Assembly: GCA_030019435.1 (NCBI GenBank)
Contig: JASEEV010000006.1
Location: 1-56,130 of the forward strand
DNA length: 56,130 nt
DNA from: Methanocellales archaeon
GTDB taxonomy: Archaea > Halobacteriota > UBA148
Direction: 5' to 3'
Shown here: piece after piece, positions 6,211-45,639 of the stretch
How positions within the stretch are numbered: the stretch's first letter is position 1
Layout: each line of letters opens with the position of its first letter
Program-made: the position numbers and the translations under genes
Notes under the pieces: generated by a model
The model's input: only the letters and a program-made list of their open reading frames with translations
The model's database searches: none
Told to the model about the DNA's origin: nothing

Positions 6211-7713
6211 TCATCGCCTTCTCCTGATCAGATATGCGACTACTAGCAATCCTATGATTGCGAATACTACCTCAAAGCCAGGCACTGGTGTGGGTGTTGG
6301 CGTTGGATATACATATGGCGTTGGCGTGGGCACTGGTGTCAGTATGGACGCTGGCGCTATTTCTTCAGGCGGAGTGATTTCCTTTGGGATACCTACTATC
6401 TCGCCTGGAATGGGGCCCACTAGAGCTGCGTTCAAGTTGGAAATTTTTCCTTCAATCGTCTCTTTAGCGGATTCTGCTAGTTTCATATAGTCTAATTGCC
6501 CTATTTTCTCTCTGCCATAGGTGATTAAAACTAACCCTTCAGGTAGGGATTCATTTATCTGCGTGGATGAGATGACTTTTCCAATATATTTGAATTCTCC
6601 TTCAACATCTGAGAGAACATAGTCTTGGTGATGACTGGAAGCGCCCATTGTCAGGAGGACGTCTTCCTTCTCAGGAGGTACGCTGATTTTATTCCAAGAA
6701 GCTAATCCATGAAGGAGAACGTCTGCTGGAGGATATTCTTCCTCAGATTCCTTGATCGCTTCTTGGACGCTAATTGTCCCGCCTTTTCCGAAGGCAGTAA
6801 ATGTGACAACATTTCCCTTGTATTTGTCTGGATTAGTGGTCATCTCCCTTACAGATGGGACCTCTGTGCTTCTTAGCCTAGTCTCCACGATGTAGAGCAG
6901 CACTTTTTCATCAGTATGGATGAGTTCGCTTTCAAGACCTCCTATATTTCTGATCAAGTCGGCGATTGCGCCTTTAGGATACAAAACTATGGCATTGACA
7001 ACTGCCTTAGAATCAATCCAGAAATCCTCTTCAAAGTGGAAGGTGTGTAGGTACGGCTCCGTAATATCTCCAAGAAGTCTATCAGTAAGATCTCTCGAGG
7101 GGTTATCATGGAGTCCTTTGACCTTCTTTGGCATATAATCAACGAAATCTACAGGAGCTCTGGGAGAGTCAACAACTACACCTACTGTTACTGGCAATTC
7201 AATCCCGGTTCCATCATCAGGGTCATAAAGGATGGAGACTTGCCTCAGCGTGGCATCTACTTTAACAAGCTTCAACACGTATTCATCGGGATTTGACAGT
7301 ATAGCGCTGATAGTGGCTGGATCACCCTCTTTCTTGATGGATACGCTTTCTGCTTTTATCACAGACAACTCAGTATCCTCCCAGGTTAAGCTGCGAAGAA
7401 GTTTTTCACCTTCAACTGTAGCTAAGCCTTTGTCCACCTTTTCCCGAGTGAAAACTAGCGAGAGCTCTTCTTTCGTGGCTAGCAGAAATACGTACGTTGG
7501 AAGTCCCTCGGGCACAACTTTTCTATATTCCGAGACATCGTCTTCAAGGGAATCTGGAATAGGAAATGCAGCCCCTTCCAAAGTAACCAATATAGATTTG
7601 ATTTCTGGCTCTGGTAGCTGAGCACTCACAGCCATCGGCATCGCTAGCAACATCAGCAAAACTAAAACAACAATGATTTTTCCCAACGGCATCTTTCCAA
7701 CCATGGACATCAT
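6211..7713 (-). CDS. Secreted cell-surface protein with PGF-CTERM sorting signal
   Basis: Signal peptide (KIIVVLVLLMLLAMPMAVSA), PT-rich linker, C-terminal VPGFE-hydrophobic helix-RRRR. Confidence 0.9.
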   Translation of the reverse strand: MMSMVGKMPLGKIIVVLVLLMLLAMPMAVSAQLPEPEIKSILVTLEGAAFPIPDSLEDDVSEYRKVVPEGLPTYVFLLATKEELSLVFTREKVDKGLATVEGEKLLRSLTWEDTELSVIKAESVSIKKEGDPATISAILSNPDEYVLKLVKVDATLRQVSILYDPDDGTGIELPVTVGVVVDSPRAPVDFVDYMPKKVKGLHDNPSRDLTDRLLGDITEPYLHTFHFEEDFWIDSKAVVNAIVLYPKGAIADLIRNIGGLESELIHTDEKVLLYIVETRLRSTEVPSVREMTTNPDKYKGNVVTFTAFGKGGTISVQEAIKESEEEYPPADVLLHGLASWNKISVPPEKEDVLLTMGASSHHQDYVLSDVEGEFKYIGKVISSTQINESLPEGLVLITYGREKIGQLDYMKLAESAKETIEGKISNLNAALVGPIPGEIVGIPKEITPPEEIAPASILTPVPTPTPYVYPTPTPTPVPGFEVVFAIIGLLVVAYLIRRRR

Positions 7714-24408: not shown

Positions 24409-25458
24409 ATGAGAAGAGCTAAATGGCATCATCTCGGCCATGATAGATGCACAGTCCCTATCTATGAGGCTTCCTCTCCTAGGGGAGTTGTTCCACTATT
24501 GAAAACCCTCATGAGCAGTTATTGCACGAACGACTGCAAGTTTTGCATGTTCAGGTCCTCTAGAAGGATCGACAGGTATAGGTGGGAGCCAGAAGAGTTA
24601 GCTAAGATAGCGATACATCTCTGGGAAATGAAAAAGATCAAGGGGCTTTTTTTGAGCTCTTCTTTCGAGGGAGATCCAGACGAGACGGTTGAGAGACAAC
24701 TAGAGACGGTGCGAATGCTCAGAAGAGACGGATTCACGGGATATATTCATCTTCGCCTTATGCCTGGGACAGGGATGGAAAAGATAAAAGAATCGATGAC
24801 ACTCTGCGATAGAATTGGAATAAACATCGAGTTTCCGAACAAGGAATTGTATGAGGAAATGAAGGGGGGTCCAATCGATTTTAGCCAAGATGTGATGAAA
24901 AGAATGGAGCAAATTTCCAGGATTGCCAGAAAGGAATGCCAGGCAGACGTTGATACCCAAATCGTTGTGGGAATTGAGGACTATGATGATGAAATCCTAA
25001 AGAAAACGGAGTGGCTCTATAAAAAATTGAACCTGGCCAGGGTATATTACTCTGGGTTTGAGCCAATCCCAGACACGCCTCTAGAAAAGCACCCTCCTTG
25101 TCCTAAGCTAAGGGAGCTCAGATTATATCAGACATCTTTCTTGCTCAGAGATTATGGTTTCAAATTAGACGACATGGTATTTGATGGAAAGGGGATGCTT
25201 CCCTTGGACGAGGATCCTAAATTCTTAGCAGCAAAGACGGCGGATTTATTCCTTGACATAAACGAGGCGTCCTATCTTGATCTACTGAGAGTTCCCGGGA
25301 TAGGGCCAGTCAGTGCTAGAAACATATTAGAAGAAAGACCTTTAAGGGACGAGAAGCAACTAAGGTCCATCGGAGTCAATCTCAAGAGGGCTAGACCATT
25401 TATCTTCCTCAAGGGAACGCAGAAGACCCTGGCGGATGAAAAAGTTTATCGTTCGTAG
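24409..25458 (+). CDS. Radical SAM protein with C-terminal helix-hairpin-helix (putative DNA modification/repair family)
   Basis: LLKTLMSSYCTNDCKFC, GLFLSS, YIHLRLMPG, RVYYSGF, RLYQTSFLLRDYGF, INEASYLDLLRVPGIGP. True start is after the tRNA. Confidence 0.88.
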   Translation: MRRAKWHHLGHDRCTVPIYEASSPRGVVPLLKTLMSSYCTNDCKFCMFRSSRRIDRYRWEPEELAKIAIHLWEMKKIKGLFLSSSFEGDPDETVERQLETVRMLRRDGFTGYIHLRLMPGTGMEKIKESMTLCDRIGINIEFPNKELYEEMKGGPIDFSQDVMKRMEQISRIARKECQADVDTQIVVGIEDYDDEILKKTEWLYKKLNLARVYYSGFEPIPDTPLEKHPPCPKLRELRLYQTSFLLRDYGFKLDDMVFDGKGMLPLDEDPKFLAAKTADLFLDINEASYLDLLRVPGIGPVSARNILEERPLRDEKQLRSIGVNLKRARPFIFLKGTQKTLADEKVYRS

Positions 25459-25543
25459 AGCATTAGAGCTTCACGTTCCTAACACCATGGGGTTCTCAAA
25501 TCTGACGATATATTTTTAGTAAGAAGAGGTCAATTGGAAGAAG

Positions 25544-36837: not shown

Positions 36838-38309
<1,472 letters not shown>

Positions 38310-38446
38310 AACGAAATACAGCCGATCGGAGCCGAAAAACTGCTAGGGTAGGCATGATAATACGAGATTCGTTGGGACCCCGGGGGAGCTTCTAACGCCC
38401 GAAATGTATATAATCTATTGGGTGTAACGAGATAGGTCGCTATGTG

Positions 38447-38558
38447 GGGCTCGTAGCTCAGTTGGAAGAGCGCTGCCTTTGCATCCGAGGGGCTTCGCCC
38501 CATTCGAACCCCAAGGCGAAATAGGCAGAGGCCCTGGGTTCAAATCCCAGCGAGTCCA
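38447..38558 (+). tRNA. tRNA-Ala(TGC) with 39-nt intron at 37/38 (38484-38522)
   Basis: GGGCTCG/CGAGTCC acceptor, CTGCC-TTTGCA|intron|A-GGCAG; BHB central helix TTTG/CGAA. Confidence 0.92.
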
Positions 38559-38561
38559 TTT

Positions 38562-38664
38562 CAAACCCCTTTAGAAAGGTGTTTGATCCCCAAAACCTTT
38601 TAGGAAAAGGTTTGATCCAAAAAGTAATATTTGGGGGAGTCAAGAGGGGGCAGAGCCCCCTTTG
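38562..38664. repeat. Three hairpin repeat units in the 16S-23S spacer
   Basis: CAAACCCCTTTAGAAAGGTGTTTGATCC, AAACCTTTTAGGAAAAGGTTTGATCCAAAAAG, GGGGGAGTCAAGAGGGGGCAGAGCCCCCTTTG. Confidence 0.75.
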
Positions 38665-38780
38665 TAGATGCACTCGGTGAGAGAAATCTCGTCGGGGAAG
38701 GGTGGATAGCGTTAATCAGCTAAATGAGACCGCGTATAAGTTTGCGACCCGGACGCTCACTGAGTTCAGTGAAGCGGATT

Positions 38781-41770
<2,990 letters not shown>

Positions 41771-41828
41771 TTGCTGAGCTGAGTTCAGGCGATATCTGGG
41801 TCGCAAACTTATACGCGGTTTTCAAAGC

Positions 41829-41854
41829 GGGTTTCAAGAGGGCGTAGCCCTTTG
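41829..41854. repeat. Hairpin repeat unit immediately before tRNA-Cys
   Basis: GGGTTTCAAGAGGGCGTAGCCCTTTG, same family as 38633-38664 and 40352-40380. Confidence 0.75.
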
Positions 41855-41856
41855 AT

Positions 41857-41977
41857 GCCAAGGTGGCGGAATGGCTAACGCAGCCGCCTGCAGATGAAAA
41901 AGGAAAAAGGTCATCGGAAAACTACGTTTTCCTCGGTGGAGAGCGGCTTTTTGCCGGTTCAATTCCGGTCCTTGGCT
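41857..41977 (+). tRNA. tRNA-Cys(GCA) with 48-nt intron at 37/38 (41894-41941)
   Basis: GCCAAGG/CCTTGGC acceptor, GCCGC-CTGCAG|intron|A-GCGGC, U73 discriminator; BHB helix CTGC/GTGG. Confidence 0.9.
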
Positions 41978-42077: not shown

Positions 42078-42206
42078 TGAGCATAGCGGCCATGGCGACG
42101 GGGAAACTCCTGGTCCCATCTCGAACCCAGAAGATAAGACCGTCCACGTTCTATGCTGTACTGAGGTGCGCGAGCCCTTGGGAACCATAGGTCGCTGCTA
42201 TGCTCA
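42078..42206 (+). rRNA. rrf: 5S rRNA
   Basis: TAGCGGCCAT..CCCATCTCGAACCCAGAAGATAAG..GGGAACCATAGGTCGCTGCTA; terminal stem TGAGCATAGC/GCTATGCTCA. Confidence 0.96.
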
Positions 42207-43281: not shown

Positions 43282-44451
43282 TCATTTGACCTCTGTTATC
43301 ATGTCGATCAGCGTTTCAAATGCCTCAAACACACCTTTCTTTTCCGTCGCAACGGTTGGGACGATCGGCACCGATTTTGGGACTTTCATTCGCTCTCGTA
43401 GTTCATCCACGCTTAAAGCATCTGGCAGGTCTTGTTTGTTCGCTACGATCACATAAGGAAGCCCGTGTGCCCTCGCAGTCTCTAGCATCTGCTTCGCCCT
43501 GACGAAGTCCATCGGCTTTGATGAGTCTAACACAAGGAACACGCCCATCGCCTCGCCACCGAGCACTTTGAGAATGGGATCAAATCGTTCTTGTCCTGGC
43601 GTTCCAAATATGTCTGCTGCAAATCCTTTGTGGTCTATCCTACCATGATCCATCGCAACGGTAGTTCCAAGGCGGTCCACAGATACGGCTCTGCTCGAGA
43701 TCGCGTGGATAAAAGTGGACTTGCCAGAGTGGTATGCCCCTGTCACAAGGATCTTGGGTATGTATACCCGTATACCAGTAGGTCGAAACACTTTGAACAA
43801 CATCGATCGTTTCTTCACCTCAGCCCAGTCCACCTTTGAGACTCCAAAGTACTGTCCAAATATGACTCGTTCAGCAATTCCTCCGATCGTGACCACCGCA
43901 TCGAACAGCTCTTCTTTTATCTGTTTCAGTGTTTCCTCAGCATAGGGCCAAGCGGTGAAGTTGCAAACAAAGACGTTATTGTACGTCATATGGAGTTTTT
44001 TCCATTTTTTGACATACTCCAACGTCTCCTCCTCTCCACACAGGTCCATGAGGGTCGATAGGGGCTCAAACACGACCAGACCGCTGCCAAGCTCTTCCAT
44101 TGCCTTTGACAAAGTCTCATCCAATGCCCCGATGTTCTCCGGATCGGACACAACGTAGCGTTCATCAGAATCCGCTCCCACTAGTGCCGAATAAGCGTCA
44201 ACGATGATAAATCGATCCTCGAACTTTCCAACATCCCAGCCAAATTCGTTGAAGTGCTCTCTAACCGTATAGGGGGCTGAGCTGATAGTGACATATATTC
44301 CTTTCCCTCCTTGCATCAGATGGTGGTACAAGGTCTGCATCCCAAATACATCACCCTCGACACCAGGTTGTACGTAATATACCAATGACCTGCCTGGTGG
44401 AACTTCTCCACCCATGAAGTCATCCAGTTTTGGAATGCCTGTTTTGAGCAT
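43282..44451 (-). CDS. Fusion of a degenerate KaiC/RAD55-like domain with an MglA-like small GTPase
   Basis: N-terminal KTGIPKLD..GG with a broken Walker A (QPGVEGD). C-terminal GAYHSGKST, TTVAMDHG, FGTPGQERF, NKQD, PTVA. Confidence 0.88.
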   Translation of the reverse strand: MLKTGIPKLDDFMGGEVPPGRSLVYYVQPGVEGDVFGMQTLYHHLMQGGKGIYVTISSAPYTVREHFNEFGWDVGKFEDRFIIVDAYSALVGADSDERYVVSDPENIGALDETLSKAMEELGSGLVVFEPLSTLMDLCGEEETLEYVKKWKKLHMTYNNVFVCNFTAWPYAEETLKQIKEELFDAVVTIGGIAERVIFGQYFGVSKVDWAEVKKRSMLFKVFRPTGIRVYIPKILVTGAYHSGKSTFIHAISSRAVSVDRLGTTVAMDHGRIDHKGFAADIFGTPGQERFDPILKVLGGEAMGVFLVLDSSKPMDFVRAKQMLETARAHGLPYVIVANKQDLPDALSVDELRERMKVPKSVPIVPTVATEKKGVFEAFETLIDMITEVK

Positions 44452-45213: not shown

Positions 45214-45639
45214 TGAGTGAGGAGAGTAAGCCCCCTTTTGTTTCAGCGGCATTCGTCTGAGCGTCATACTCGGGCATCGGCTGGACTCCTTATCTGCCCA
45301 TCTTTGACTTGCACCTACGAGGTTTCGCCGTTCCATCCATGCATGCACGACCTCATCGTCAAAAATCGCAAAAGCGATTTTCTCCTCCTCGATTCTTCGC
45401 TCAGAATCTCGGTTCCGAATCATCGCATTGGTGCAGCGTGGTATCGTTTCTGTGCCAGAGCCAAGACTCTCGCCTTGTGCGCTTACATGCACTCGTATGT
45501 CCAGACGGTGGGGGGACTTTCCTCGCAACCTTTTTGCAAGCAAAAAGGCGTTTCTGTTGCACAGAAACAGCCTCTTTCTACGCAAGTAGAAAGCTGCTTG
45601 ACCAAAAAGTTGTGGCAGCCGCCCTTCCTCTCTCAATCA
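45214..45639 (-). ncRNA. rnpB: RNase P RNA (expanded by two repeat insertions)
   Basis: Minus strand has GAGGAAAGTCCCCCCACC (P4 5' strand, 45524-45507), CAGAAAC, AACAAAAGGGGGCTTA (P4 3' strand) and terminal P1 pairing GAGAGAGGAAG/CTTACTCTCCTC. Confidence 0.93.

Follow-up and report, generated by a model that had tools for sequence, protein, structure and literature searches.

What does the intron in the spacer tRNA-Ala gene of this archaeal rRNA operon record: the arrival of an intron from a mobile hairpin, or an older event that only resembles one? The window analysed here, a contig of 56,130 nt (C65) from a genome of 1.42 Mb (87 contigs, 94% complete, 45% G+C), contains an rRNA operon with a tRNA-Ala(UGC) gene between its 16S and 23S genes (Table 1). 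The original prediction held that this gene is interrupted by a canonical intron, that the reverse complement of the intron aligns with a repeat lying in an insert of the 23S gene, that spacer tRNA-Ala genes of such operons are normally intronless, and that the locus might therefore be a snapshot of intron gain from, or invasion of an intron by, a mobile hairpin. We find that the kinship between intron and repeat is real and that the intron is not a newcomer. In the reading that we consider likely, it is an old, functional intron built on one unit (M) of a hairpin family and held in common with a sister genus, and the family proliferated later, in this lineage.

The insert in tRNA-Ala(UGC) has the attributes of an archaeal bulge-helix-bulge (BHB) intron: its removal restores a canonical tRNA cloverleaf (Rfam, ARAGORN), its borders form two 3-nt bulges and a 4-bp helix, and the enzymes of splicing are encoded in the genome. 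The Rfam tRNA model covers the gene at full length (positions 1-71, 59.5 bits), with 41 inserted nucleotides placed within the anticodon loop, and ARAGORN, with introns allowed, reports tRNA-Ala(tgc) with an intron i(38,39) of 39 nt right after nucleotide 37. In a hand reading of the sequence, the anticodon stem (27-31/39-43) is the outer helix, the 5′ splice site falls within the bulge C36,A37|U and the 3′ splice site within the bulge A,U|A38, and intron nucleotides 34-37 (CGAA) pair with U32-U33-U34-G35 to make the central helix; an inner helix, CC/GG, and then a long hairpin lie beyond. When the pair cells of this hand-read model were counted across the four orthologues described below, the 18 pairs of the BHB and long hairpin were standard in 72 of 72 cells, and slid partners gave at most 56%. 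Minimum-energy folds also show the inner hairpin and the CC/GG helix. The minimum-energy fold of the whole pre-tRNA was rejected as a basis for the BHB, as the anticodon arm is wrongly paired there with the variable region, although its inner intron hairpin is that of the hand-read model. The canonical 37/38 site and good BHB proposed at the outset are thus borne out by Rfam, ARAGORN and the pair count, and taken alone this is an ordinary archaeal tRNA intron. It shares with canonical introns processed by EndA and RtcB the 37/38 position, the two 3-nt bulges, the 4-bp helix, the inner helix beyond and the encoded enzymes; it differs from them in residing in the spacer tRNA-Ala of an rRNA operon and in having a dispersed repeat for its body.

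Table 1. Features of the rRNA operon and of the hairpin modules within it, in coordinates of the window
Feature	Coordinates	Strand	Remarks
16S rRNA	36838-38309		
tRNA-Ala(UGC)	38447-38558		
tRNA-Ala(UGC) 5′ exon, nt 1-37	38447-38483	+	Rfam tRNA model, 59.5 bits; ARAGORN -i
tRNA-Ala canonical BHB intron, 39 nt	38484-38522	+	ARAGORN, hand-read BHB, repeat homology, orthologues in G001, G004 and G005
Module M within the tRNA-Ala intron	38484-38516		TCCGA, GGGGCTTCGCCCC hairpin, ATTCGAACCCC, AAGG
Tail of the tRNA-Ala intron	38517-38522		Pairs with the anticodon loop
tRNA-Ala(UGC) 3′ exon	38523-38558	+	Rfam, ARAGORN; identical to the sister-genus exon
Spacer hairpin AAACCTTTTAGGAAAAGGTTT	38593-38613	+	One of 3 exact copies genome-wide; both others beside tRNA genes
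Repeat copy (M′) in the spacer, ~110 nt upstream of 23S	38634-38666	+	nhmmer E 5.2e-7; covariance model 43.3 bits
23S rRNA	38776-41774		
74-nt insert in the 23S gene	40308-40381	+	GGAGAAAC-TAC-GTTTCTCC hairpin plus the 31-nt repeat (40352-40382); boundary ambiguous by 1 nt
Weak copy of module M, 23S-tRNA-Cys spacer	41826-41858	-	nhmmer E 0.014; covariance model 25.4 bits, E 0.012
tRNA-Cys(GCA)	41857-41977		
tRNA-Cys(GCA) canonical intron, 48 nt	41894-41941	+	GGAAAAC-TAC-GTTTTCC hairpin module; 49-nt orthologue in G001
5S rRNA	42082-42203		

Two further features of the window lie beyond the operon, both on the minus strand. One is an open frame of 389 aa (43282-44451) that carries a KaiC-type ATPase domain and a small Arf/Ras-like GTPase domain; the other is a match to archaeal RNase P RNA (45215-45634) that runs to 420 nt against a model of 288 positions, with sizeable insertions.

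The 31-nt repeat, present as an exact copy in the 23S gene (0 expected, from 100 shuffles), is one module within a system of hairpin modules. We refer to its 23S orientation as M′ and to the reverse complement as M, the pattern of which is TCCAAA, GGGGC-loop-GCCCC, TYTTGAMACCCC. Its companions are the perfect hairpins GGAAATC-GAA-GATTTCC and CAGAAACC-TAAA-GGTTTCTG, with 9 and 10 exact copies, a GGAGAAAC-GTA/TAC-GTTTCTCC hairpin with many variants, and a block of ~93 nt containing three hairpins. The modules combine and nest. Both perfect companion hairpins, like the 93-nt block, are invariably found inside M, between CCCCA and TCGAAACCCC, at what is the terminal loop of M in its long-hairpin form, and the constancy of this position suggests a preferred site. 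At three places (C11:33720, C44:57144 and C9:10715) M is directly adjoined by M′. Ten or more tRNA genes have M-type sequence in their introns (Ala, Thr-UGU, Thr-CGU, Lys-UUU, Gln-UUG, Gly-UCC, Met, two Leu and Arg-CCU), and it is because of such introns that the Rfam model finds just 30 tRNAs in the genome.

Outside this genome the repeat is far harder to find. A covariance model of nine M′ copies gives 21 hits here and none in six of six sister-genus genomes (E<=1); it likewise gives none in three f2 genomes, and two or three hits each in three of four f3 genomes. An open-frame test of the context of each hit gave no strict tally, since spurious open frames extend over tRNA genes. Relatives with the same tRNA-Ala intron therefore largely lack the repeat family, which is the outcome that the original prediction had named as telling against it, though diverged modules remain. 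Those of the sister genus all lie within the rRNA operon, with M in the tRNA-Ala intron, a complete reversed composite of five modules in the spacer, and a GAAAC hairpin in the tRNA-Cys intron. The sister-genus spacer hairpin at the site matching the M′ copy upstream of 23S is orthologous to that copy.

Such a distribution invites the idea that descent ran in the reverse direction, with the operon copies (tRNA-Ala intron, spacer hairpins and tRNA-Cys intron) as founders of the dispersed family, since the sister-genus modules are essentially confined to the operon and the repeat model matches nothing else there. More distant relatives, however, carry modules elsewhere. The same unit as in the 23S insert, 68 nt long, is found with conserved flanks at C11:95848 in this genome and in G010 and G012 (both f3), at 87-91% identity. 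At C11:95848-95914 (G000), this hairpin unit of 66-68 nt lies in frame and free of stops inside a 433-aa open frame (C11:95062-96363), where it bridges an ABC-ATPase-like part and a C-terminal domain, and the protein-coding locus is orthologous in G010 and G012. A second f3 genome context is tRNA-Ser of G008, whose intron contains a GAAAC hairpin, and in G009 (f2) companion hairpins lie in the tRNA-Arg(CCU) intron at 91% identity. Because these f2 and f3 copies, with the f3 unit ~90% identical, lie outside the operon, the family either goes back at least to the age of the order or moves between lineages, and the idea of the operon copies as sole founders is weakened to the point that we regard it as unlikely.

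Our preferred reading, an old intron followed by a later burst of the family, draws on comparison of the spacer across relatives. The spacers of three sister-genus genomes (G001, G004 and G005) can be aligned with this one over their whole length (74-78% identity), and each contains an orthologous intron of 38 nt at the identical site, with 28-30 of 39 columns identical. The exons are close to invariant: one D-loop base differs from the 5′ exon of G004, and the 3′ exon is that of the sister genus. An intron at 37/38 of the spacer tRNA-Ala is present in seven of the seven order relatives with an assembled spacer; in the other two families of the order the bodies of these introns are different (37 nt in G008, 57 nt in both G010 and G012, 130 nt in G007). 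Beyond the order, ten of 12 spacer loci from the phylum have an intronless tRNA-Ala, one has an intron of 18 nt and one has no tRNA in the locus, which fits the expectation that this gene is normally intronless. Over the four orthologues the paired positions show one compensatory change (a G-C pair in this genome where the sister genus has A-U) as well as two one-sided changes, and the long hairpin and central helix are kept; covariation drawn from four related sequences is statistically weak, and 121 of 500 shuffles equal it. The short GC hairpin, GGGGC-TTC-GCCCC, is perfect in this genome; G001 has only GGG/CCC left of it, and G004 and G005 have none. The conserved part of the intron is the long hairpin that presents the BHB, and the last ancestor shared by the two genera probably already had an M-bearing intron.

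These comparisons bear directly on the proposal that, in this genome, a mobile hairpin recently gave rise to the tRNA-Ala intron or recently invaded the body of that intron. Several observations speak for recent events of this kind: the intron has an exact 14-mer and 25 of 29 bases in common with repeat copies, the same family demonstrably inserts elsewhere in the lineage, and the GC hairpin that is perfect here and missing from G004 and G005 could be a product of gene conversion from the abundant copies. Recent arrival is nevertheless very unlikely, given orthologous introns with the same flanks in all three sister-genus genomes, the retention by G001 of a GGG..CCC hairpin at the matching place, and the lack of a single model hit in the sister genus, which indicates that the intron predates the burst. 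What survives of the link to a mobile hairpin is kinship; the orthologues in G001, G004 and G005, together with the presence of an intron throughout the order relatives, remove the snapshot of gain or recent invasion.

The kinship itself can be measured in several ways. Reversed, the tRNA-Ala intron gives a local alignment score of 30 against the 23S insert, in agreement with the alignment first proposed, and of 38 against the best copy, in the tRNA-Gln intron, where the 25 identities in 29 positions are ungapped. No shuffle matched these scores in a test of 500 or in another of 1000, a significance that is overstated for this genome's own intron, since shuffling breaks the self-complementarity of the hairpin, and less so for the introns of G004 and G005, from which the GC hairpin is missing. 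The 14-mer is common to the intron and the reverse complement of the 31-mer (blastn-short E 0.12 genome-wide). Models from which the intron was left out place it at the borderline: 13.6 bits, E 0.071 and rank 15 for an nhmmer profile of seven repeat copies, and 19.8 bits, E 0.27 for a covariance model of nine. The orientation of the intron is opposite to that of most transcribed repeat copies. Because both orientations of the repeat exist, it also matches the forward copies that open the Thr-UGU, Leu, Lys and Met introns (0-2 of 500 shuffles as high), and the same forward module opens the tRNA-Thr(CGU) intron as well.

With an exact core of just 14 nt, such E values, and a hairpin that is nearly its own reverse complement, one might ask whether the resemblance is a matter of chance or convergence, GC-rich hairpins being common in tRNA introns and imposed by structural constraint. 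Against this, the match extends through non-palindromic flanks. By way of the flanks TCCAAAGGG and TTTTGAAACCC, the introns of G001, G004 and G005 match the reverse complement of this genome's copies; the match scores 29, a value reached by 0 of 1000 shuffles, and the other orientation gives p ~0.08-0.09. Convergence on GC stems cannot explain the match, because the G004 and G005 introns retain it without a GC hairpin. The flanks match in the M orientation only and therefore point to homology that predates the repeat burst. With a forward module also opening the Thr(UGU), Thr(CGU), Leu, Lys and Met introns, we consider convergence most improbable. The strength of the match lies in this extended flank similarity more than in any one statistic, and to judge from the shared sequence the ancestral intron would already have consisted of an M unit and a BHB-forming tail.

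That the gene is an unspliced pseudogene, as its unspliced form in one RNA-library contig might be taken to mean, is scarcely credible for the single tRNA-Ala(UGC) among the 30 tRNA matches of the Rfam model, the exons of which are near-invariant across genera, the BHB of which is kept with a compensatory change, and for which endonuclease and ligase are both encoded. The endonuclease has two tRNA_int_endo domains (PF01974 twice) in one open frame of 373 aa on C29, and an RtcB-type ligase gene lies on C12 (PF01139, 568 bits). The two-domain single-chain endonuclease, the only type found here, is of the strict kind. The RNA-library contig in question (run X4, 38400-38728) is the only one over tRNA-Ala; it retains the intron at a depth of 65.6, compared with thousands over 23S, and may represent precursor RNA or carried-over DNA. 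The exon joint 38483|38523 is found in no RNA-run contig among the assembled Logan contigs, which rarely capture mature tRNAs.

The gain or invasion imagined for tRNA-Ala does occur in this genome, at tRNA-Thr(CGU), in enlarged introns and in the 23S gene, but not at tRNA-Ala itself. The 23S insert shows presence/absence polymorphism. It occupies a small loop that directly follows the conserved CAGGUUAAUAUUCCUGUAC stretch, corresponds to an unaligned block of 83 nt in the Rfam LSU alignment, and is absent from seven of the seven order relatives that have the region. In DNA run X1, a contig of 2280 nt joins 40307 directly to 40382, with 7 base differences and 3 gaps over 1.9 kb; this contig is >99% identical and lacks the insert, and a near-identical strain must therefore lack it too. 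In this one pair of empty and filled alleles there is no target duplication beyond the 1-nt ambiguity. The region of the insert folds as a junction of three hairpins, with no BHB at the borders. Contigs of RNA runs X4 and X8 also skip the insert, and an rRNA intron was entertained and rejected: because the DNA of X1 has the same joint, the RNA contigs reflect a strain allele and are no evidence of excision. We read the insert as a recent insertion that has been retained as an rRNA expansion, the filled allele being known only from this assembly; an assembly artefact is less likely than a polymorphic rRNA expansion.

The tRNA-Thr(CGU) gene (C75:7932-8068, minus strand) contains a 65-nt intron made of repeat modules. 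In ten of 13 relatives the two halves of the gene are contiguous, without an intron, and no match was obtained in the remaining three, which are 76-89% complete; the intron is a lineage-specific gain. Its 3′ end, GCAAG, leaves a C·A mismatch in the central helix of the BHB, so that splicing may be poor, but would fit the anticodon loop of tRNA-Thr(UGU) without a mismatch. The introns of both genes start with ACCGAAGG, which suggests that the Thr(CGU) intron may have been copied from the Thr(UGU) gene. Other introns have an orthologue in G001 and are enlarged here: 15 vs 117 nt in Thr-UGU, 41 vs 161 in Gly-UCC, 33 vs 95 in Asn, 28 vs 172 in Gln and 93 vs 151 nt in Lys-UUU, for G001 and this genome respectively. 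The introns here are thus ~2 to 8 times longer than their orthologues, with the reservation that these long introns, like the 23S insert, come from a repeat-rich metagenome assembly in which misassembly at repeats is possible. Three tRNA-Leu genes (C75:~7280-7500, C12:~25190-25460 and C11:105673-105843) apparently have long introns of another placement, in the D-loop and not at 37/38, starting with CAACCYTTT.

We propose the following course of events. The tRNA-Ala intron would be co-transcribed with the rRNA operon; the splicing endonuclease would cut at the two 3-nt bulges of the BHB, and RtcB would join the exons. The intron body is a single M unit of a modular family of GC-rich hairpins. 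Selection would since have kept the BHB and the long hairpin that presents it, with the short GC hairpin decaying in part of the sister genus. Later, and only in the lineage of this genome, the family and its companion modules proliferated in a burst that enlarged existing tRNA introns, built the Thr(CGU) intron, and reached the 23S gene as well as one or more open reading frames. Insertion at the DNA level would best fit the manner of spread, given empty and filled alleles, a copy that keeps the reading frame, copies in either orientation, nesting at a single site and no clear target duplication. The enrichment of modules in introns and spacers may reflect mere tolerance of segments that are discarded.

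Small palindromic mobile repeats include the bacterial REP/BIME sequences, the Rickettsia palindromic elements and the hairpin elements derived from IS200/IS605. The modules resemble these in being short, multi-copy hairpins found in either orientation, with strain polymorphism, an in-frame copy and no obvious target duplication. As in MITE- or REP-like families, there are multiple copies (the 21 model hits) and presence/absence polymorphism (the 23S insert). Unlike REP-type elements, they strongly favour stretches of RNA that processing removes, and no cognate transposase was identified: the hairpins beside the Y1 transposase copy on C14 and those at contig ends differ from the modules, so that no transposase is tied to them. 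The transposase in question is of IS200 type, intact at C75:5158-5511 and in fragments at C14:23772-24252. The hairpins recurring at contig ends are CTCAGCCC-TAAA-GGGCTGAG or CTCCGCCC-TAAA-GGGCGGAG, and they probably break the assembly. Still another set, of seven perfect GAAGGGAG-AA-ATCCCTTC hairpins, is spaced at ~0.8-1.6 kb along C15:2850-10083, with two more on C75.

Within the archaea, the closest parallel is provided by the tRNA intron families of the Thermoproteales, which are described as having transposed among tRNAs (Fujishima 2010, as summarised in PMC4090602; bioRxiv 10.64898/2026.10.13.758758). As far as these accounts go, the mechanism of tRNA intron transposition was unknown at the time of the 2014 review (PMC4090602), and the 2026 preprint (10.64898/2026.10.13.758758), which likewise gives the route as unknown, found no general route of arrival for introns in Asgard archaea. 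The likeness to the Thermoproteales families, as summarised there, lies in related introns spread across anticodons within one genome, in the use of canonical and non-canonical sites, and in lineage-specific gain. The last of these is seen here for tRNA-Thr(CGU) and not for tRNA-Ala, the intron of which is common to the sister genus. By the same summaries, the present system differs in its lineage (Halobacteriota), in its two-domain single-chain endonuclease, in the movement of short hairpin modules that combine and nest in place of whole introns, and in the occurrence of modules outside tRNA genes as well, in 23S, spacers and an open reading frame. Our literature search, the coverage of which left out most subscription journals, turned up neither an account of this repeat family nor one of introns in the lineage.

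A single hairpin family thus links an old tRNA-Ala intron, a gained tRNA-Thr(CGU) intron, introns enlarged up to eightfold, a strain-variable insert in 23S and an in-frame copy in a coding gene. The phenomenon known from the Thermoproteales is extended to the Halobacteriota, with differences in lineage, in the modular nature of the hairpins, in the copies within rRNA and coding genes, and in the availability of sister genomes with ancestral states. Close relatives preserve the empty states and so supply the comparative series that is needed to address how introns arrive, and the system around the tRNA-Ala intron is a useful model for intron gain. We suggest, tentatively and as something short of an even prospect, that the tRNA-Ala intron may be the oldest resident copy, and possibly a founder, of a still-mobile family that makes introns, nests in them and enlarges them, and that also enters rRNA and coding genes, all in a euryarchaeal lineage with sister genomes that are still poor in introns. 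If the founder reading is true, dated before-and-after pairs would make the arrival of introns in archaea directly testable.
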